Origin: an uncultured cyanobacterium
GTDB taxonomy: Bacteria; Cyanobacteriota; Cyanobacteriia; Cyanobacteriales; CAWUOF01
Length of the DNA: 64,000 nt
Reading direction: 5' to 3'
Assembly (NCBI GenBank): GCA_963744145.1
Contig: CAVUSO010000001.1
Span: 2,592,001-2,656,000, forward strand
Below are positions 12,939 through 26,754 of the stretch, piece by piece. Made by a program: the position numbers and the translations under genes. The first letter of the stretch is position 1, and every line of letters starts with the position of its first letter. The notes below the pieces were generated by a model. The model was not told the origin of the DNA. It ran no database searches and saw only the letters and a program-made list of their open reading frames with translations.

Positions 12939-15900
12939 ATGGATGCATCTCAATCTCTAAATAACCCTGTGGCGACTCCGCCCTCCGACTCTGCCCAGGT
13001 AACACTCAACACAAGTTTCTACCATGCTTTTATTTCCTATGGTCGGGCTGATAGTAAAGCCTTTGCAGCTAAACTCCAAGAGCGACTCAATCAGGCTGGA
13101 TTCAAAGTGTGGTTTGATTTCAACGATATTCCCCTTGGTGTTGATTATCAAAATCAAATTGATGATGGGATAACTAAAGCGGATAACTTTCTGTTTCTAA
13201 TTTCGCCTCATTCGGTTAACTCTCCCTATTGTGGGAAAGAAGTTGAACTAGCCATCAAATTAAAAAAACGAATCATTCCACTACTGCACGTAGGACAAAT
13301 CAGCCAAGAGACTTGGCAACAGCGTCATCCTGGTAAATCAGAGTCAGAATGGCAAATCTATCAAGAAAAGGGATTACATTCCAGTTTCCCGAATATGCAC
13401 CCTATGATTAGCAAAATCAACTGGATCTATGTTCAGGAAGGGATTGATGATTTTGAGAAAGGATTGAGCGGCTTAATAGACATATTTCATCGCCATCCGG
13501 ATTATGTACGACAACATACAGTTTTATTAAATCGGGGAATTGAATGGGAACAACACCAGAAACAAACCCGCTATTTATTGACTGGAGAAGAACGGGAAAC
13601 AGCAGAAGCATGGCTAAAACATCGGTTTCAGGAAGAACAACCACCATGTGAACCGACATTACTGCATTGTGAGTTAGTGTGTGAGAGTATCAAAAACGCC
13701 AATAACTTGATGACCCAGGTGTTTTTCTCCTATTCGGAAGTGGATCTGGCTAAGATGCTCCAAATTCGCCAGAGCTTGTTGCGAGAAGGGATCACAATTT
13801 GGACAAATAAGACAGATATTAAAACGGGGGAAGTATTTCAGGCGGCCATCAATCGGGGGATTGAACAAGCTGATAACATTGTTTATTTAATCTCGACCGA
13901 TGCACTGACATCCCGTTACTGTCAGCAAGAGATTGACTATGCCCTTAGTCTGAATAAACGGATTATTCCCCTGTTGATCCGAACCACCGACTTGGAGAAA
14001 ATTCCGCCCATCATCCGAGAATTACAATTTATCAACTTCAGTGAGAATCAGACTGAGGCAGATTTACGTGAGGCTTTGGATGATTTACTCAATGCTTTAC
14101 GGGAAGAAGCCAGCTATTACGAAGATCATAAAATGCTGTTGAGCAAGGCGTTGAAATGGGAACAACAGAACCGTAACCCGAGTATTTTAATGCGGGGCTA
14201 CAATTTGCGCCATGCAGAAGTGTGGTTGAAGGGAGCGGAACTGAAAACCCAACATCAGCCTACAGCCTTACAGAAAGAGTTTATTAGGGAAAGTTTGCGC
14301 CAACCACCAGTCACCTCCCTAGATGTATTTATCTCCTACTCCAAATCTGATGCGGAGCTAGCCCGTCAGTTAAATGATGAATTGCAGACGCGGGGGAAAA
14401 TAACTTGGTTTGACCAAGAGAATATCGGGTCAGAGGCGGATCTGGAGCAGGAGATTTATCGGGGAATTGAGAGTGCGGACAATTTTCTGTTTATTTTATC
14501 ACCACGCTCAATTAATTCTCCCTCCTGTATTGATGAAGTGGAATATGCAGCTAAACTCAGCAAACGTTTTATTACGATCTTGTATCAAGGGGTGAATACC
14601 GCCGAGTTGCATCCAGAGCTAGCTAAAGTACCGTCGATTGATTTTAGGCAAAGGGAAGGGGATTTTTACTCCCATATTAATCAATTGCTGAGAACTCTAG
14701 ATACAGACCGGGAATATATCCAAAATCATACTAAATGGCTGCGTCGAGCGATTGAATGGGAAAAGCATAATAATAGCAGTGATTTACTGCTGCGGGGGAG
14801 TGAATTTGTGATCGCCCAGGAATGGTTTAAGCAAGCAAATCAAGGCAAAAAGCAACCCCAAATCACGGAATTGCAAACCAAGTTTATTGAATCTAGCCGC
14901 GATGCGATCGAGGCAATTGCTAAACAGGAAAAACGGCGACTGGTCGTGTTACGGCTGATGCTGGGGATGATGACAGGATTGGCGGTCGCTGCGGTGATCG
15001 CTACCATCATGGCGATCGCTAATGGCAAAAAAGCCAAACAGATTGCCATTAGTTCTCAGGGACAATATGCTTTGTCGCTATTAAATCCACATGAGGAAAA
15101 ATTTGATGCTTTAATTGCCGCAATTGAGGCTGGAAAGGCTATGCAAAAAGAAGGGATCACTGACCCGGTAGTGACAGACGCTTTGGCAAGATCAGTTTTT
15201 AGCGTGAGTGAACACAACCGCTTGCTCAAACATAAGAGTTATCTCACCAGTGTCAGTTTCAGCCCCGATGGGAAAACCTTGGCTTCGGGGAGTTGGGACA
15301 AGACCATCATCCTGTGGAATGCGAGTACAGGAAAGGTACTTCGCACTCTCTCTGGCCATAATGAAGTAGTCTATAGCGTCAGTTTCAGCCCTGATGGGAA
15401 AATCTTGGCGACCGCTAGTAGAGACAGTACCATCAAGCTCTGGGATGTGAGTACAGGAAAGGAACTTCGCACTCTCTCTGGCCATACTGGGGTAGTCTAT
15501 AGCGTCAGTTTTAGTACCGATGGGAAAACTTTGGCTTCTGGTAGTGAGGACAATAGCATCAAACTCTGGGATGTAAGTACGGGCCAAGAACTCCGCACGA
15601 TCTATGGCCATAGTGATGTAGTCAGAAGTGTCAGTTTCAGCCCCGATGGGAAAACCTTAGCTTCGGCGAGTTGGGACAAGACCGTTAAACTCTGGGATAT
15701 GAATACTGGCCAGCACATTCGCACTCTTTATGGCCATACTGATCAAGTCTATAACATCAGTTTCAGCCCCGATGGGAACACCTTAGCTTCGGCGAGTTGG
15801 GACAAGACCGTTAAACTCTGGGATGTAAATAGTGGCCATGAACTTCATAGTCTCAATGGTCATAGTGATTTTGTCAATAGTGTTAGTTTCAGTCCCGATG

Positions 15901-17087
15901 GGAACACCTTGGCTTCTGCTAGTTGGGATAATACCATTAAACTTTGGGATGTGAGTAACGGTGAGGAAATTCGCACTCTCCCTGGCCATAGGAATTTTGT
16001 TTATAGTGTCAGTTTCAGCCCCGATGGGAAAACCTTAGCTTCGGCGAGTTGGGACAAGACCATTAAACTTTGGGATCTGGATACAGACCAGGAAATACGC
16101 ACTCTCCCTGGCCATCGCAATGTAGTCAATAGTGTCAGTTTCAGTCCCGATGGAAAAACCTTGGCTTCGGGGAGTTGGGATCAGACGGTCAAACTCTGGA
16201 ATGTAAGTACCGGCCACCTAATTCACACTCTTCTTGGCCATAATAATTATGTTTATAGTGTCAGTTTCAGCCCCGATGGAAAAACCTTGGCGACCGCTAG
16301 TTGGGACCAGACTATCAAACTCTGGAATGTAAGCACGGGCCAGCTAATTCGCACTTTCTCTGGCCATAATAATTTTGTTTATAGTGTTAGTTTCAGTCCC
16401 GATGGAAAAACTTTGGCTTCTGCTAGTTTTGACAAGACCGTCAAACTCTGGAATGTAAGTACAGGTCAGCTAATTCATACTTTCTCTGGCCATAGTGATT
16501 TTGTCTATAGCGCCAGTTTCAGCCCCGATGGGAAAACCTTGGCGACCGCTAGTAGGGACAAGATGATCAAACTCTGGGATCTGAGTACCGGACAGGAAAT
16601 TCGGACTTTCTCTGGCCATAGTGATGTAGTCTATAACATTAGTTTCAGCCCCGATGGGAAAACCTTGGCTTCGGCGAGTTGGGACAAGACGATCAAGCTC
16701 TGGAATGTGAGTACCGGGCAGGAACTTCGCACTCTCCCTGGCCATAGTGATGTAGTCTATAGCGTCAGTTTCAGCCCCGATGGGAACACTTTGGCTTCTG
16801 CTAGTTGGGATAAGACGATCAAACTCTGGAATGTGAGTAATGGCCAGGAAATTCGCACTCTCTCTGGCCATCTTGATTTTGTTAATAGTGTCAGTTTTAG
16901 CCCCGATGGGAAAACTTTGGCTTCTGCTAGTGGGGACAAGACTATCATCTTGTGGAAGTTAGACGTTGATTTTAACCATCTTTTAGAACGGGGTTGCGAT
17001 TGGTTGAATGTTTATTTGCATAACCCGGATTCTGATGCTGATTTTAGCCATATTGACAGTCATCTTTGCGACGATATCAACAGGTGA
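12939..17087 (+). CDS. Triple-TIR domain, transmembrane, 14x WD40 repeat protein
   Basis: Three (A/V)F(I/F)SY...S.(Y/S)C..E TIR units, a hydrophobic helix (LVVLRLMLGMMTGLAVAAVIATIMAIA), then 14 units of GH....SVSFSPDGKTLAS.S.D.T.KLW. Confidence 0.92.
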   Translation: MDASQSLNNPVATPPSDSAQVTLNTSFYHAFISYGRADSKAFAAKLQERLNQAGFKVWFDFNDIPLGVDYQNQIDDGITKADNFLFLISPHSVNSPYCGKEVELAIKLKKRIIPLLHVGQISQETWQQRHPGKSESEWQIYQEKGLHSSFPNMHPMISKINWIYVQEGIDDFEKGLSGLIDIFHRHPDYVRQHTVLLNRGIEWEQHQKQTRYLLTGEERETAEAWLKHRFQEEQPPCEPTLLHCELVCESIKNANNLMTQVFFSYSEVDLAKMLQIRQSLLREGITIWTNKTDIKTGEVFQAAINRGIEQADNIVYLISTDALTSRYCQQEIDYALSLNKRIIPLLIRTTDLEKIPPIIRELQFINFSENQTEADLREALDDLLNALREEASYYEDHKMLLSKALKWEQQNRNPSILMRGYNLRHAEVWLKGAELKTQHQPTALQKEFIRESLRQPPVTSLDVFISYSKSDAELARQLNDELQTRGKITWFDQENIGSEADLEQEIYRGIESADNFLFILSPRSINSPSCIDEVEYAAKLSKRFITILYQGVNTAELHPELAKVPSIDFRQREGDFYSHINQLLRTLDTDREYIQNHTKWLRRAIEWEKHNNSSDLLLRGSEFVIAQEWFKQANQGKKQPQITELQTKFIESSRDAIEAIAKQEKRRLVVLRLMLGMMTGLAVAAVIATIMAIANGKKAKQIAISSQGQYALSLLNPHEEKFDALIAAIEAGKAMQKEGITDPVVTDALARSVFSVSEHNRLLKHKSYLTSVSFSPDGKTLASGSWDKTIILWNASTGKVLRTLSGHNEVVYSVSFSPDGKILATASRDSTIKLWDVSTGKELRTLSGHTGVVYSVSFSTDGKTLASGSEDNSIKLWDVSTGQELRTIYGHSDVVRSVSFSPDGKTLASASWDKTVKLWDMNTGQHIRTLYGHTDQVYNISFSPDGNTLASASWDKTVKLWDVNSGHELHSLNGHSDFVNSVSFSPDGNTLASASWDNTIKLWDVSNGEEIRTLPGHRNFVYSVSFSPDGKTLASASWDKTIKLWDLDTDQEIRTLPGHRNVVNSVSFSPDGKTLASGSWDQTVKLWNVSTGHLIHTLLGHNNYVYSVSFSPDGKTLATASWDQTIKLWNVSTGQLIRTFSGHNNFVYSVSFSPDGKTLASASFDKTVKLWNVSTGQLIHTFSGHSDFVYSASFSPDGKTLATASRDKMIKLWDLSTGQEIRTFSGHSDVVYNISFSPDGKTLASASWDKTIKLWNVSTGQELRTLPGHSDVVYSVSFSPDGNTLASASWDKTIKLWNVSNGQEIRTLSGHLDFVNSVSFSPDGKTLASASGDKTIILWKLDVDFNHLLERGCDWLNVYLHNPDSDADFSHIDSHLCDDINR
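15222..16960 (+). repeat. Intragenic tandem array of 14 x 126-bp WD40-coding units
   Basis: Recurring GTCAGTTTCAGCCCCGATGGGAAAACCTTGGC at 126-bp period. Confidence 0.9.
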
Positions 17088-18612: not shown

Positions 18613-18936
18613 AATAAATATACCTCTCTTTCTATCTTTAATAGTTTACATTTTTTTATCTAAATCATCCAGTGGTAATTGCTAGCAAAAATCCCCAGCA
18701 ATTACTCAAATGGATCTGGGGCGATCGCACCTTCGGAGAAAATGAGGATGTTGATCCCAGTCTCGGATTGGCCAGTAGATTTTGAGTTCCGTGCTATGGC
18801 ATTATTAAAAGTAGCTCAGTACCGCGAGGCTTGATAAATTACGATCCGAAGTAGATTTTGAATTCAGTTGATGCTAGAATCGCAGTAATTATGTCTAATC
18901 ATCATTCTACATCCATGAATTTGAGTTCAGGTAATT

Positions 18937-19587
18937 ATGTATCATCAGATTGGACTTTGGGATAATCAGCTAGATAGCAGTCATCTATTTCTCGAAAATA
19001 ACCTGCAAAACAAAGTAGTTATTAATACTGATGGAGATGCTATACTATATCCCTTTTTTTTTAGCATTAAAGAAAGTAATCGTCTTTTTTCAGATTTATA
19101 TTCTAGTGTTAAATGGAGACAAGACACAATCCAATTTTTTGGAAAAAAGATGCCTTTACCGAGACTTACTGCTTGGTATGGAGATGAAGGTAAATCATAT
19201 ACTTATTCGGGTATAGAACAGCATCCTGAAGCTTGGAATCCCGTACTAAAATCAATCAAATCAAAAATTGAAGAAATATCAGAAGTTACTTTTAATAGTG
19301 TTCTGATCAACCTATATCGGGATGGTAAAGATAGCGTTTCATGGCATAGTGATGATGAGCCAGAACTAGGAGAAAATCCGATTATAGCCTCAGTTAGCTT
19401 TGGCGCAAGTCGCCGATTTTCATTAAAGCATAAAATATCAAAAGACCACAAAATTGATATTGATTTGCCCAATGGTAGTTTGCTATTGATGAAAGGTCAA
19501 ATGCAGCACTTTTGGCAACATCAAATTGCTAAAACTTCTAAATCGGTTGCTCCCAGAATCAATTTAACTTTTAGAGTGATTAAATAA
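18937..19587 (+). CDS. AlkB-family 2OG-Fe(II) dioxygenase (ALKBH2/3-like)
   Basis: PRLTAWYG, NSVLINLYRDG.DSVSWHSD, WQHQI, RINLTFR. Confidence 0.92.
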   Translation: MYHQIGLWDNQLDSSHLFLENNLQNKVVINTDGDAILYPFFFSIKESNRLFSDLYSSVKWRQDTIQFFGKKMPLPRLTAWYGDEGKSYTYSGIEQHPEAWNPVLKSIKSKIEEISEVTFNSVLINLYRDGKDSVSWHSDDEPELGENPIIASVSFGASRRFSLKHKISKDHKIDIDLPNGSLLLMKGQMQHFWQHQIAKTSKSVAPRINLTFRVIK

Positions 19588-19626
19588 GAGAAGCTAAAAA
19601 CTAATGGAAAACCTATACGACTATAT

Positions 19627-19750
19627 TAGACCTCTTGCAAAAGTCCTTATTCATCTATTTATTGACAGGCAAGATGCCTGTCCCACCAGAAAAAATCACT
19701 TTTGTGGGACAGGCATCTTGCCTGTCCTATTTATTTTTGCAAGAGGTCTA
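19627..19750. mobile_element. 124-bp MITE-like element with 16-bp terminal inverted repeats and two internal inverted REP-like palindromes
   Basis: TAGACCTCTTGCAAAA (19627-19642) and TTTTGCAAGAGGTCTA (19735-19750). Internal palindromes GACAGGCAAGATGCCTGTCCCAC and GTGGGACAGGCATCTTGCCTGTC. Confidence 0.8.
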
Positions 19751-19851
19751 TTTTAGAAGGAATCAAAACCTCTCCAGCTTTTTATGGTGCTGAAACCTAT
19801 GCCATAATTGACTAGAGAAAAAATAAACGATTAAATATAAAAACTGACCTG

Positions 19852-20086
19852 ATGAATTTAACGATCGGCTTGCTTATCCGCATTACCCAAACTCCTGGTC
19901 CAATGTGGTGGTCGTCCCTGTATTCGAGGGATGCGAATTCGAGTCACCGATATTTTAGAAATGTTGGCTGAAAACGTTAGCGTTACTGAAATTTTAGCAG
20001 ACTTCCCCGATTTGGAACTGGCAGATATTCAAGCTTGTGTACTGTTCGCAGCAAAGCGCACTGATTTTCCTAGACTCACAGCATGA
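19852..20086 (+). pseudogene. DUF433 (VapB45-like antitoxin) gene, frameshifted by +1 near 19900
   Basis: MNLTIGLLIRITQTPG, then in the shifted frame QCGGRPCIRGMRIRVTDILEMLAENVSVTEILADFPDLELADIQACVLFAA. Confidence 0.8.
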
Positions 20087-20159
20087 AGAGCAGATATTTT
20101 TTGACCAGTTGCAGGTAGATGTGGTTGACGGAGTTATTGAAAATATTTGTGGGTGGCAG

Positions 20160-20189
20160 TTGACAGGGCAGAAAAATATATGATACCAT
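20160..20189 (+). promoter_or_regulatory. Candidate sigma70-type promoter for the three-gene cassette
   Basis: TTGACA (20160) - 18 bp - TACCAT (20184). Confidence 0.45.
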
Positions 20190-20342
20190 AACGTAATTTG
20201 AATATTTTTTTACACAAATAATGGTCAAAACCCAGTTAGCTAGTTGTTTGTCCCTATGTCATAATTAGTAAATAAGCCCGTGTTGAGTTGCGTTTCCTCA
20301 GCCCAACTTAGAAAATCTACAATCACACTAAGCGATAAGGTA

Positions 20343-20645
20343 ATGGATTCAGAAAAAGACGATAAAAAACTAACTATAACAGAGATGATCAAATCTGGTC
20401 AATTACAAAGTATCTATTTTAACGAGTTTGGTATTGGAGTTTCTAAGCATGATATTTTCATATTATTAAGACGTAATGGAAAAGAAGAAGCAATACTCAA
20501 CGCATCTCACATTACAGCTAAATCACTTGTAAGTTCTCTAGGTGAGGCTCTGAGAAGATTTGAAACTAAAACAAATCAAACCATACCGGATTCAGATGAA
20601 ATTGAAAAATTAATGGCGGAGCAAGATGAGGACAATGAGCAATGA
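20343..20645 (+). CDS. Hypothetical protein, DUF3467-like
   Basis: IYFNEF...DIFILL...ILNASHITAKSL...L...L..FE...I pattern. ATG 20343 is preceded by AAGG. Family call is by eye only. Confidence 0.5.
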   Translation: MDSEKDDKKLTITEMIKSGQLQSIYFNEFGIGVSKHDIFILLRRNGKEEAILNASHITAKSLVSSLGEALRRFETKTNQTIPDSDEIEKLMAEQDEDNEQ

Positions 20646-21228
20646 GCAGAAGGATAAATCTTCTTCTTTTTTTTACGATTTTAAATTGAAGACAATAGAT
20701 AAAAGTCGGTTTTATATTCCAGAAAAAAGCCCTCCATTTGTTTATATGGAATCCAAGTCGAAAAATCTCGAAATACCAAGAAATAAATCAAGTAAAAGAG
20801 ATGAAATAGATAAATTATCGACATTTGAAGAAATACTTAAATATGGAATTGATGCTATTAAGTTGAAGGATGATTATTTTTTCAACCGGATTTGTGAATT
20901 AAAAGAATTATGCGATTCAGAAGAAGACTATGATGTTTCTTTGGAATCGCTTAAAACCATGTTTTTATTTGTTGAAGCAATTGGAAGTATTTCTAAACCG
21001 AGTAGCTTAACTGTAAGTGAAAGTGGTCTTTTTTATTTAGAATGGGAGCGAGATAGAAACAATTCAATAACCGTGCGGTTCAAAAAAGATTATTTCTTAG
21101 ACTATGTTATTTTTAAGCCAAGTTTGCATATAAAGAAACGAATTACCTTGAATGGTTCAATGTATGCTCTTGATCTAATTGATTATCTGAGCGATTTAAA
21201 CATAAAATATATCAAAAAATATAAATAA
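20626..21228 (+). CDS. Hypothetical protein, putative antitoxin/immunity-like
   Basis: Intact ORF overlapping the upstream stop. C-terminal RI.EL...D...P.....SG.FYLEW......I.V.F domain. Confidence 0.55.
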   Translation: MRTMSNEQKDKSSSFFYDFKLKTIDKSRFYIPEKSPPFVYMESKSKNLEIPRNKSSKRDEIDKLSTFEEILKYGIDAIKLKDDYFFNRICELKELCDSEEDYDVSLESLKTMFLFVEAIGSISKPSSLTVSESGLFYLEWERDRNNSITVRFKKDYFLDYVIFKPSLHIKKRITLNGSMYALDLIDYLSDLNIKYIKKYK

Positions 21229-21239
21229 GAAAAATCAAG

Positions 21240-21662
21240 ATGACAGAAATAGAAACTGGTAATGTTACTCGCTATTGTAAACCCTCAACTTTGGAAAATG
21301 GAATACCAAAGAGTTCTAGTTTTGAAAGACGAAGGGATGAAAAATATTTGTCGGTTTATTGGCTTGAATTCTTTGGTGAGGAAACAGAAGTAGAAAACAT
21401 TAAAGAAGTTAAAAGGTCTATGGAACAAAAAAGTTTTACTTGTAAACCTAATGGCTCTTTTGCTATTATTAATATCCAGCAATCAAAAGAATATATCTTT
21501 GAAAAATAATCATTATATATTTCCTATAGAGAACAGAACTTACCTCATTGTGGTATTTTCCATGAGTCTGACGATCTATTAATTGCCAAGTTGCTTGCTG
21601 AGTACGTTCAGAACAATTATCCCGTTAGAAATCTCGCCGATTCAACGATTTCACCCTCATAA
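21240..21662 (+). pseudogene. Putative ADP-ribosyltransferase-like toxin with an in-frame TAA at 21507-21509
   Basis: VTRY...SSF.....YLSVYW...FAII, then after TAA the same frame continues SLYISYREQNLPHCGIFHESDDLLIAKLLA... to TAA at 21660-21662. R-S-H motif order. Confidence 0.55.
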
Positions 21663-21743
21663 CCGTCTGAAAAATTGCCGATCTAAAAAGTAACTAATGC
21701 CTACTCTGGACAGCTAGTAACTATTTAATCTCATTATCGATCT

Positions 21744-21881
21744 GCTCAAGATATCGAAATCTTTGAAGCAGCACGAGTCGAAAATGCTGTGATTATGACC
21801 AAAAATAGTGACTTCATCGACTTGGTATGTCGTTTAGGATCACCTCCTCAAATTTTGGGGCTAACCTGGGGCATATTTTAG
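21744..21881 (+). pseudogene. DUF5615 (VapC45-like PIN toxin) internal fragment
   Basis: AQDIEIFEAARVENAVIMTKNSDFIDLVCRLGSPPQILGLTWG; family pattern D.EI...A......I.TKD.DF......G.PP. Confidence 0.75.
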
Positions 21882-21949
21882 TAAGTTTCAAGGGCGATCG
21901 CACCTGGACTAATGCCAGATTTCTAAGCAAGAAATAGATCAGATCTTTA

Positions 21950-24798: not shown

Positions 24799-25503
24799 TC
24801 AAAAGGGAAGTTCTTCCTCTTCTTGATCATTTTTTATTGGTAAATCCCGTAATTCGATCACAGCAGCGATTAGTTTCCAACAAGGATCGCCCTCTTTTTC
24901 CCAATCAGAGGGTCGCCAAGGCATACTTAAACTAACTGTTACTAAGCAAGGATGTTGAGGACGATATCCTAATTCTAAAATTCTCACAAATGCCGGATCG
25001 GTAATAGTGGCTGTCAATTTTTGATGTTGAGCTGTCTCTAGGGTAGCTTCCCATTTTTTACTATCTTCAAATCGCGCTCCTAGCGATCGCACTGATAATT
25101 TTACCGCTAAAATTAACTGAAGTGTATAACGCTGAGAAAAAGGTAATGACTGCATAAAATCTATAGTCACATACCGCTGCTCGTTATGAAGAATATATTT
25201 TTCCTGACTGCAAAATTTGAGCAAATCACTAGCAGATGCTCGTTTCAATCTGCGCCATTCTCCTGGTAAAATAGAAAGATTCTCGCATTCAAACCCGAAA
25301 TCAGGTCCGGTATGGGCTAAGGGAATTTCTAAAATGTCTAATAGTGCAGGTTCTAATCTGCTAATCTGTCTCATTTCTTTGGGAACTCTCCCATCAGGTA
25401 AGTCTGATACTGGACGAATCCATTGTCCAGTATTGGGATTAATTCCTGCAATGCACCGATCGCCACGTTTCCAAGAATTTGCTAAACAAATTATTCTAGT
25501 CAT
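24799..25503 (-). CDS. Dual OB-fold domain-containing protein
   Basis: IICLANSWKRGDRCIAG...WIRPVS...ITDP...VSLS.P...CWKLIAAVI. ATG 25503 overlaps the upstream stop (ATGA). Confidence 0.8.
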   Translation of the reverse strand: MTRIICLANSWKRGDRCIAGINPNTGQWIRPVSDLPDGRVPKEMRQISRLEPALLDILEIPLAHTGPDFGFECENLSILPGEWRRLKRASASDLLKFCSQEKYILHNEQRYVTIDFMQSLPFSQRYTLQLILAVKLSVRSLGARFEDSKKWEATLETAQHQKLTATITDPAFVRILELGYRPQHPCLVTVSLSMPWRPSDWEKEGDPCWKLIAAVIELRDLPIKNDQEEEELPF

Positions 25504-25952
25504 AGATGGTTTATATTCATGTTTCCCCATTTGTTTTGCAGATATTCTGCTACTAAACGACGATGACAATGATGTGGTTTAGCTTCACTACAGAGCAGAC
25601 ATCCATCATTAAATATCTGAGGTGATATTTTTTGTTCAATCTCGCGATCGCTGATCAATTGCAAAAATTTTTTCTCATAATTATCCCAATCTCCACCATG
25701 CTTTTTATATTCATCTAAAATATCCTTAGTCGGTGCTAAGTCTAAAATATGAATATATTCAATCTGACCGATTTTGGTTAAGAAATACTCTAAATCTTTG
25801 CGTTTGGCAAATCCTGCTAATTGAGAAATATTATTGAGTCTAGTATCAATTACTCGTCGGACTCCAGCATTCACTAAGGTATCAAAAAATTCTTGGGCAG
25901 TTTTTTGGGTAAATCCGATCGTAAACAAATTGATTGGCTCATTCAGGTGCAT
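25500..25952 (-). CDS. DUF488 family protein
   Basis: LFTIGFT, IDTRLNN.SQLAGF, LLCSE....CHRRLVAEYL. Confidence 0.9.
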   Translation of the reverse strand: MHLNEPINLFTIGFTQKTAQEFFDTLVNAGVRRVIDTRLNNISQLAGFAKRKDLEYFLTKIGQIEYIHILDLAPTKDILDEYKKHGGDWDNYEKKFLQLISDREIEQKISPQIFNDGCLLCSEAKPHHCHRRLVAEYLQNKWGNMNINHL

Positions 25953-26571
25953 GGTTAGGTTTCTCCGATTTTACATAAGCAATCTCTAATCCTTGTTTAT
26001 CATAAGCTGTTTCTAAATCTATTTCTACTAACTCAGGTGAGGTAAATAAGTTTAACTGAATTGGTTGATTTAAGTCATTTTTATTAAACTTTGCTAATAA
26101 CCTTTTTTCTAATTGAGCGTGGGATTCCAATTCTCCATCTGGTAAAATATGATAAATTGAGACTTGCTCTTTTTTTTGTAACTCTCGACCAATTAAAATT
26201 GTCCGGTGACAGGTAAGCGGATCTTTTTCTGCACACATTAAAGCAATTTTATAAGCTGCTAAACCTTTAAGTACCCGCTCAATTCCTTGGGAAAATAATT
26301 CAGTAGCTGCAATTCTTTCATAAAGGGCTTTACCAGTAAAATCATAACAACTTTCTGCTTCTGGTCTTGCTCCTAATTCTCGACCGAGAAAAACATACTG
26401 AATCCCTGCACTTACCAGAGCTGTTTTACAATTAGCTTGGTTAAAATGGGTGAGATAACGACTATATGGATGCGATCGCACATCAGCGATCGCTGTAATT
26501 TGATGTTGGTGTAGTAAGGAAATAAAATCTGCCATACTCAGATTAGAATGTCCGATCGTAAATAGTTCCAT
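25939..26571 (-). CDS. DUF488 family protein
   Basis: MELFTIGHSN, DVRSHPYSR, LMCAEKDPLTCHR. Start placed at ATG 26571. Confidence 0.9.
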   Translation of the reverse strand: MELFTIGHSNLSMADFISLLHQHQITAIADVRSHPYSRYLTHFNQANCKTALVSAGIQYVFLGRELGARPEAESCYDFTGKALYERIAATELFSQGIERVLKGLAAYKIALMCAEKDPLTCHRTILIGRELQKKEQVSIYHILPDGELESHAQLEKRLLAKFNKNDLNQPIQLNLFTSPELVEIDLETAYDKQGLEIAYVKSEKPNHAPE

Positions 26572-26754
26572 AAGCCAATTAAACGAAAAATCGGTATTAC
26601 TACCGATCACAAAATTTCGATCAAATCTTAATTTTGATTTTTAGCTATTTTCCTCAACCTTGACAGTGATACAAAACACAAATTTTTAACAGATTGGTCA
26701 CAAAACTTTTTTAATATTTCCTAGTTAACGATCGCGCTAATTTTAATTTCTGAT

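Follow-up and report, generated by a model that had tools for sequence, protein, structure and literature searches.

ADP-ribosyltransferase (ART) toxins with cognate antitoxins, among them DarTG, ParST, CmdTAC and Tre/Tri, have repeatedly revealed new ADP-ribosylation targets and phage-defence logic. The present analysis concerns a three-gene cassette in the window, which here denotes a stretch of 64,000 nucleotides from an uncultured cyanobacterium (NCBI GenBank assembly GCA_963744145.1, contig CAVUSO010000001.1, positions 2,592,001 to 2,656,000). An earlier note on this DNA, made from the letters and open reading frames (ORFs) alone, had proposed a candidate tripartite toxin-antitoxin (TA) or anti-phage system comprised of a DUF3467-like protein (gene 1), a putative antitoxin (gene 2) and an ART-like toxin (gene 3). 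The observation was confirmed, and none of the four conditions that the note named as refuting its reading was borne out. The description that fits the cassette best is that of a new variant, with three genes, of ART TA systems that is decaying in this genome. We consider it, on balance, probable that it represents a horizontally acquired TA-like module centred on small proteins (~140 amino acids) that form an undescribed family and are predicted to have the ART fold.

In omega-epsilon-zeta operons a small first gene is followed by the antitoxin and then the toxin. The cassette has the same order and gene 1 could likewise be an operon regulator, although the toxin folds are unrelated. Tpt1 carries an additional RNA-binding lobe at its N-terminus and catalytic residues of its own. 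Tpt1/KptA is the closest solved fold to that predicted for gene 3; the gene 3 protein, of 140 amino acids and with no Pfam match, aligns with the NAD-binding C-lobe only and is placed outside that family. The DarT-DarG, ParS-ParT, RES-Xre and MbcT-MbcA systems resemble the cassette in that an ART-superfamily toxin is held by a cognate antitoxin in a small mobile operon, but they are two-gene systems of other sequence families with other catalytic residues, and their antitoxins are macrodomain or Xre/helix-turn-helix (HTH) proteins.

CmdTAC (PMC11618068) is an anti-T4 defence system comprised of an ART toxin, an antitoxin and a SecB-like chaperone. It has in common with the cassette an operon of three genes, a toxin of the ART fold, a partner in which a long region is disordered and another small protein as the third component, and the logic may be alike as well. 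The CmdT triad is H-Y-[EDQ] of the diphtheria type whereas that of gene 3 is R-S-H, CmdA consists of two helices and a disordered C-terminus whereas gene 2 is predicted to encode a folded alpha+beta core and a disordered N-terminus, and CmdC is a SecB homologue whereas gene 1 is a sub-threshold relative of DUF3467. The gene order also differs, and the cassette has no PADLOC match. The comparison with CmdTAC drawn in the earlier note thus holds as an analogy of layout and fails as a statement of membership, given the R-S-H triad and the lack of a match in PADLOC 2.0. The TreTu-TriTu pair of Salmonella, associated with Rhs and with type VI secretion (T6SS), offers a second likeness (PDB 7ZHL/7ZHM; PMC9825190): a minimal ART domain, a non-canonical triad and a small sheet-plus-helices neutraliser docked on the toxin. 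TriTu is described as a sheet of five strands plus two helices and forms a lid closing the TreTu catalytic site. TreTu itself makes up the C-terminal tip of an Rhs protein that is secreted, and its immunity gene lies downstream; in contrast, the gene 3 homologues are stand-alone, with the predicted binder encoded upstream and a third gene present. No sequence similarity was found between TreTu-TriTu and the cassette proteins. The cassette belongs to none of the CmdTAC, DarTG, RES-Xre and Tre-Tri systems.

Nonsense lesion, predicted fold and conserved triad of gene 3

The frame of gene 3 comprises 89 codons followed by an in-frame TAA, 50 further open codons and a terminal TAA at 21660-21662. 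The open codons encode LPHCGIFHESDDLL, with LPHCGIFH included, in agreement with the claim that gene 3 is longer than the ORF track showed and continues to PHCGI past the stop. A search with the read-through protein as query, with X at the stop, returned 92 relatives, and full-length relatives covered 87-99% of the read-through protein. The possibility that homologues end at the TAA had been raised in the earlier note; 89 of the 92 instead extend across that position with lengths of 93-157 amino acids, the other three being the 89-residue ORF of the window itself and a pair of short database entries with 84 and 89 residues. A sense codon (Ile or Leu) occupies the stop position in all four cyanobacterial loci checked. 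Since the relatives cross the TAA and carry a sense codon there, gene 3 is assigned as a nonsense pseudogene and the TAA as a lesion rather than the natural end of the gene, an assignment made from sequence comparison. The lesion looks recent since the conserved residues 3' of the stop are still intact. The truncated product lacks the predicted strands beta4-beta6 and the invariant H103, and the toxin gene is presumably inactive here with its two partner genes still intact. The only near-identical public run, X1, which may be the source sample itself, was identical over 19900-20221, 20407-21337 and 21611-21817 and had no contig over 21338-21610, the interval containing the stop.

In order to obtain a fold, an intact gene 3 homologue 83% identical to that of the window was modelled with AlphaFold2 from an alignment of 86 sequences. 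The model had a predicted local distance difference test (pLDDT) score of 95.4 and a predicted template modelling (pTM) score of 0.88, with strands at residues 8-13, 37-41, 73-78, 94-100, 103-108 and 123-128. In a structural search that did not rely on Foldseek and covered 48,161 chains, Tpt1/KptA ranked first (Z 8.2 and 7.7), followed by Tse2 (6.5), the VPA0770 toxin (5.7) and DUF952/CC0527 (5.3). The lower rows included, among others, the ART-superfamily proteins Scabin, DarT, TreX (4.8), TreTu (4.6), pierisin, pertussis toxin, MbcT, RES and ParT, with the DarT, ParT, RES and MbcT toxins at Z values within 3.3-5.7; cholera toxin was also among the ART-superfamily matches. In a second look at the structural list, rows 1-14 were Tpt1/KptA (Z 6.8-8.3, root mean square deviation (rmsd) 2.5-2.9 over 91-97 aligned residues), and every one of rows 1-37 was an ART-superfamily protein. 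The best match to Tpt1/KptA (Z 8.3, rmsd 2.6, 91 residues) involved chain residues ~84-182, the NAD lobe, alone. The gene 3 family is thus predicted to have an ART fold, consistent with the ART/RES-like fold suggested in the earlier note. A profile search of PDB sequences gave matches at chance level (E 0.5-1.2), and the best match among the viral structures of BFVD was to an unnamed protein at E 4.5e-3.

The only invariant columns in an alignment of 39 relatives, reaching down to 25% identity, were R11, S38 and H103, the very residues R (VTRY), S (YLSVYW) and H (HCGI) that had been picked out from the window sequence. These residues lie on strands 8-13, 37-41 and 103-108, which are strands 1, 2 and 5 of the model, with H103 at the start of strand 5. 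As assigned from secondary structure, they would occupy the sites of the ART triad. The R and S fit the R-S-E type of ART, and the third residue is His. No description of an R-S-His variant, or of the gene 3 family, was found in literature searches on ART TA families.

A remote-family search with a profile against 1.84 billion representatives identified 814 clusters of the gene 3 family at E<=1e-3, 208 at E<=1e-10 and 12 at E<=1e-30, almost all with proteins of ~140 amino acids. In a Pfam scan of 63 of the 150 remote members listed, 62 were without a match and one had a spurious match; one of ten clusters looked up carried a name, and the name was 'hypothetical protein'. Searches of Pfam, NCBIfam, PADLOC 2.0 and PHROGs returned nothing above threshold for the protein of gene 1, gene 2 or gene 3, and PADLOC 2.0 returned no match for any of the three even at E<=1, in agreement with the expectation that the locus is not an already catalogued system. 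A very distant relative of gene 3 was seen at L030:3860-4390 on the conjugative symbiosis plasmid NZ_CP017104.1 of Rhizobium gallicum, where it encodes a hypothetical protein of 176 amino acids with 26% identity to the family protein P0256 (E 6e-5). It adjoins a DUF433/VapC pair, and neither a gene 1-like nor a gene 2-like neighbour was seen.

Predicted partner gene 2 and conserved gene 1

Gene 2 has 55 homologues and no assigned family. The homologues consist of a hypervariable N-terminal stretch of 0-100 residues and a conserved C-terminal part of ~140; in the window the N-terminus (residues 1 to ~55) is variable, basic, with an isoelectric point (pI) of 9.8, and disordered, and the conserved alpha+beta core spans residues ~58-195. 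The modelled core has four helices and a sheet of five strands, followed by one last helix. In the structural search it matched TriTu (7zhm_D) at Z 5.8 and rmsd 3.1, with 79 of 87 residues aligned. Foldseek returned no PDB match for the gene 2 model at E<=1e-3. For gene 1 and for the core of gene 2 the Protein Atlas returned nothing but unnamed clusters, one of which contains 13% DUF3467 members.

The interaction of gene 2 with gene 3 was evaluated by co-folding the gene 2 core (residues 58-201) and gene 3 of the related locus L006, with alignments supplied for both. The interface score (ipSAE) was 0.89 as the median of three runs, while the best of three controls scored 0.00; the partner pLDDT was at least 89 and at least 94% of contacts were common to the runs. 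Of 157 solved complexes 116 attain this mark, as do 2 of 215 mismatched pairs, counts that are approximate here since own alignments were used. On gene 3 the predicted interface comprises residues 14-19, 22, 24-27, 29, 31-32, 69, 71, 89-90, 111-114, 117 and 121; these border strand 1, R31 and the helix that follows strand 5. The gene 2 side comprises the sheet residues 128-141, 151-153, 161-163 and 176-179 and includes the invariant L94, T131 and Y162. The prediction supports binding of gene 2 to gene 3 and backs the role of neutralising partner, or antitoxin, that had been suggested for gene 2. The cassette has the generic layout of type II TA systems, with adjacent co-oriented small genes and predicted direct binding of the partners.

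Gene 1 has 71 homologues of 88-108 amino acids and one of 168, with a mean column identity of 60% and invariant residues Y25, F26, N27, F29, N45, G46, N53, H56, A59, K60 and L66. The window protein matched Pfam DUF3467 with 13.5 bits (E 0.079), below the gathering cut-off of 25 bits. Of 48 homologues, 24 matched DUF3467 at E<=0.1, the best at E 4.3e-4, and SecB was absent among the Pfam matches of all 48 at the same threshold. A search of genome G000 with the DUF3467 family model did not recover gene 1. With regard to the description of gene 1 as DUF3467-like and not SecB, no SecB signal appears at the sequence level, and the DUF3467 likeness stays below threshold, which makes gene 1 a distant relative at most. 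A profile search of PDB sequences gave a weak match at chance level to the HTH region of VraR (E 0.013) and no other DNA-binding domain was detected. The literature on DUF3467 yielded one irrelevant paper and no function, and canonical DUF3467, found in 1 of 151 cyanobacterial genomes beside what we read from its sequence as a Hen1-like gene, was uninformative.

The acidic character of gene 1 against the basic N-terminus of gene 2 would suit a chaperone-client pair, a weak inference. The best guess is that gene 1 stabilises or adapts the basic disordered N-terminus of gene 2, or else regulates the operon. A break of gene 1 in locus L020 was considered and rejected, the apparent stop merely shortening the acidic tail to 93 amino acids as in other homologues. 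An alternative upstream GTG start at 20280 would extend the window protein to 121 amino acids.

Layout, insertion site and distribution of the cassette

The three genes are tightly packed within 20343-21662 on the + strand, as the earlier note had described, with an overlap of 20 nucleotides between genes 1 and 2 and gene 3 starting 11 nucleotides past the end of gene 2 (Table 1). In the window the cassette lies within an insert. Four relatives (G027, G021, G007 and G022) match 19878-20089 and 21743-21871 of the window and carry an intact pair of DUF433 (77 amino acids) and DUF5615 (113 amino acids) genes, an 'empty site'. Because the gap between the matching segments is ~98 bp in the relatives against 1654 bp in the window, the ~1.64 kb insert is concluded to have replaced ~95 bp of the 5' region of the DUF5615 gene. 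Both members of the host TA pair are decayed since DUF433 is frameshifted, with its ITQTPG and QCGGRPCIRG segments in different frames, and DUF5615 is a remnant; the counterparts in G027 are intact.

Table 1. Coordinates of the cassette, the surrounding insert and the flanking features in the window.
Feature	Position	Strand	Remarks
Gene 1	20343-20645	+	100 amino acids from ATG; acidic tail; pI 4.8; intact; at most a distant DUF3467 relative
Gene 2	20626-21228	+	200 amino acids; putative antitoxin/immunity protein; intact
Gene 3	21240-21662	+	putative toxin with predicted ART fold; pseudogene; TAA 21507-21509 (codon 90)
Foreign insert with cassette, ~1.64 kb	20093-21736	+	replaces ~95 bp of the 5' part of the DUF5615 gene
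DUF433 antitoxin-like gene	19852-20086	+	+1 frameshift near 19900; Pfam DUF433 E 1.8e-13, profile 17-56 of 56
DUF5615 (PIN-like) toxin gene remnant	21729-21881	+	5' and 3' ends gone; Pfam DUF5615 E 7e-9, profile 34-74 of 110
NCAB1 (NACHT C-terminal) coding-fragment remnant, 41 bp	20097-20137	-	shares 85% identity with L004:3893-3933 and L006:3842-3882
Promoter-like site TTGACA-18-TACCAT, TG upstream	20160-20189	+	10/12 match; window-specific; putative
Position of the promoter-like element TTGACG-N18-CATAAT conserved in relatives	20236-20265	+	window reads TTAGCT-N18-CATAAT (DNA alignment)

DNA homology to other cassettes extends over 20249-21675 at ~85% identity, with the 41-bp NCAB1 remnant as a separate island. 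The fragments flanking the cassettes at L004 and L006 match Pfam NCAB1 at E 1e-23 and 4e-46, respectively. Because the NCAB1 island is retained, the unit in the window appears to have been copied from a context like that of L004 and L006. No recombinase or terminal repeats were identified for the insert. The cassette is evidently a horizontally acquired, mobile insert inside another TA locus. At L004:3692-4000 (-) and L006:3560-4009 (-) a start-less NCAB1 fragment abuts the 5' side of the cassette in loci that are otherwise different, which suggests that the cassette spread along with a piece of a NACHT gene; a literature search on NCAB1 gave false matches only. A DUF5615 gene that ends at profile position 63 of 110 was also seen at L004:5549-5764 (-), ~100 bp from the 3' end of the cassette and with its DUF433 partner behind. 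This second cassette beside a damaged DUF433/DUF5615 pair could reflect coincidence or a preferred target.

The GC content of the cassette segment is 31.4%, against 39.6% for the whole window, and none of the 52 HIP1 sites in the window falls within 18721-21894. The genes are thus AT-rich and HIP1-free as had been stated, but the HIP1 gap was dropped as a sign of foreign origin since 1.3 sites are expected in the 1.64-kb insert and the probability of none is ~0.26. The claim of an own TTGACA promoter was not supported as a conserved feature. Promoter-like 10/12 matches were not enriched over shuffled sequences (12 against 8.3 +/- 3.4), and the stretch at 20160 is not conserved in the DNA alignment with L003, L004 and L006. 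A 998-nucleotide contig of a sediment metatranscriptome (run X2) is a relative of the cassette over 20280-21185, comprising gene 1 and the gene 2 core, with 38 differences in 755 aligned bases and 232 other letters in place of 151 at the variable N-terminus of gene 2. The contig hints at co-transcription, though it may instead stem from carry-over of DNA.

Genes 1, 2 and 3 were found in the same order in all eight cyanobacterial loci and in one distant metagenome locus in which gene 1 is cut by the contig end, and the co-conservation posited in the earlier note therefore extends to nine of nine related loci. In Desulfonema limicola the locus tags of the gene 1 and gene 3 homologues are dnl_29840 and dnl_29820. 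Gene 1 is more similar to that of the window than are genes 2 and 3 in six of seven cyanobacterial loci; for the distant metagenome locus the identities are 66% (gene 1), 47% (gene 2 core) and 53% (gene 3). Seven of the nine loci are intact, the window is broken in gene 3 alone, and L022 (G335:C2:4559296-4562694) is broken in all three genes, gene 1 being frameshifted, gene 2 interrupted by three stops and gene 3 by one or two. The confinement of the lesion to the putative toxin, which had been taken as a sign of toxin inactivation, is thus correct for the window and does not generalise. Two further candidates, L007 and L024, were chance hits and not cassette loci.

The cassette family occurs in 5 of 401 sampled cyanobacterial genomes, that of the window included, and its neighbours differ from locus to locus. 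Type II toxin genes adjoin the cassette in three of the five loci with long flanks, namely the window, L004 (ParE genes and the DUF433/DUF5615 pair) and L006 (a YafQ-type toxin). Defence-system genes beyond TA pairs were seen in one of the five, the window, where the region is rich in defence genes: it encodes a 3xTIR-WD40 protein, a Cas4-like nuclease and a type II methyltransferase as well as PDC-M45. The TIR-WD40 protein, 3 kb upstream of the cassette (12939-17087; 1382 amino acids), contains three TIR domains and then ~14 WD40 repeats, has ThsB-like TIR matches in PADLOC and is likely a conflict-system protein. Three adjacent ORFs at 24799-26610 (-) match the PADLOC candidate system PDC-M45 (A 3e-28, C 2e-70, B 2e-71), the first of which also matches the Pfam DuOB domain. 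Directly upstream of the DUF433 gene lies a partly palindromic repeat of ~130 bp (19619-19759) with at least eight further chromosomal copies of 97-99% identity, of which three form a tandem array near C1:7313814-7314196; the relatives G032 and G036 have weaker copies; it looks like a miniature inverted-repeat transposable element (MITE).

Proposed mechanism and competing explanations

In the explanation favoured here gene 3, the probable toxin, would bind NAD+ through R11, S38 and H103 and would then either ADP-ribosylate a target in the cell or break NAD+ down. The product of gene 2, the probable antitoxin, would dock on gene 3 through its core beta-sheet beside the site predicted as the NAD pocket, much as TriTu forms a lid on TreTu. 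In this genome the module landed inside the DUF433/DUF5615 TA pair, and the putative toxin gene has since been cut at codon 90 with loss of H103 and half of the fold. We infer the toxicity, chemistry, target, role of gene 1 and any defence function.

Several observations weigh against this explanation. The structural Z of ~8 for gene 3 is the borderline given by the tool itself for a 'common arrangement', and Foldseek found no PDB match for gene 3 at E<=1e-3, the best real rows being KptA at a probability of 0.87-0.89; the ART fold was accepted despite the borderline Z because the structural list is uniformly ART-superfamily. The best structural neighbours, Tpt1/KptA and DUF952, are not toxins. 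Proven ART toxins have a catalytic Glu, Asp or Gln as the third residue whereas the gene 3 family has His, with which the protein could be a non-transferase, an NADase or inactive, and the gene 3 proteins are acidic (median pI 5.4), unlike many ARTs that modify nucleic acids. The gene 2 model is mediocre, with a pLDDT of 68 (~85 for the core) and one good model in five; TriTu was second in its structural list, tied with Med17C (Z 6.0), and the co-fold result could derive in part from a resemblance to ART-immunity complexes with known structures. The decay of all three genes in L022 shows that the toxin need not be lost first. Two of the five long-flank loci, L003 and L005, have housekeeping neighbours and no defence context. 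No relatives of P0002, P0256 or P0235 were found in viral contigs, and P0002 was without a match in phage and plasmid records, as was P0278 in plasmids.

Phage-triggered abortive infection, which we hold to be somewhat unlikely, is a special case of the favoured TA-like module with a specified biological role. Gene 1 would stabilise the antitoxin gene 2 or sense a phage product, and infection would free the ART toxin and lead to death or arrest. The tripartite layout with an ART-fold toxin, as in CmdTAC (PMC11618068), speaks for such a role, as do the pairing of an acidic gene 1 with the disordered, basic and hypervariable N-terminus of gene 2, the greater conservation of gene 1 in six of seven cyanobacterial loci and the TIR-WD40, methyltransferase and PDC-M45 A/C/B genes around the cassette. 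It is countered by the lack of a PADLOC match for any protein and of a SecB signal in 48 gene 1 homologues, by the H-Y-[EDQ] triad of CmdT and the C-terminal disorder of CmdA, which differ from gene 3 and gene 2, and by the restriction of defence genes beyond TA pairs to one of five long-flank loci, the window.

Decidedly less probable is that gene 3 encodes a benign NAD-dependent or ADP-ribose-binding enzyme, for RNA-end repair or modification in the manner of Tpt1/KptA or similar to DUF952, with genes 1 and 2 as its regulatory or substrate-presenting subunits. The leading structural matches, the His in place of Glu in the triad, the acidic gene 3 protein and the free decay of the cassette (gene 3 broken in two of nine loci) are consistent with such an enzyme. 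However, the Tpt1 match is limited to the NAD lobe (~84-182) with no RNA lobe and no Pfam Tpt1 match, the cassette is sporadic (5/401 genomes), inserted, mobile and beside other TA genes, and a tight binder is predicted beside the pocket in genes that overlap or nearly abut in the order antitoxin then toxin. An orphan interbacterial effector-immunity cassette of the Rhs/T6SS Tre-Tri type, with a toxin module kept for recombination onto a delivery protein, is very improbable since, despite the matches to TreTu (Z 4.6), TreX (Z 4.8) and Tse2 (Z 6.5) and that of the partner to TriTu (Z 5.8), the gene 3 homologues are stand-alone proteins of ~131-157 amino acids that have a start of their own, no larger form having appeared within the lengths that the search covered, the gene of the binder lies upstream rather than downstream of the toxin, and the flanks of the five loci examined showed no genes for Rhs, PAAR or secretion.

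The probable TA-like module adds to the ART toxins a family of at least 814 clusters with an R-S-His triad and no match in Pfam, NCBIfam, PADLOC or PHROGs among the members scanned, together with a confidently predicted binder and a third, highly conserved partner, all three being small. It also provides a clean example of one TA module that apparently landed inside another and then lost its toxin. With the copy in the window dead, its value lies in the family rather than in the locus. A new tripartite abortive-infection system in which a DUF3467-like sensor or chaperone guards a TriTu-like antitoxin through its hypervariable, disordered N-terminus, and phage attack releases a new class of R-S-His ART with a new target or chemistry, is doubtful. 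If true, it would provide the first function for DUF3467-like proteins and would open an unannotated family of at least 814 clusters.

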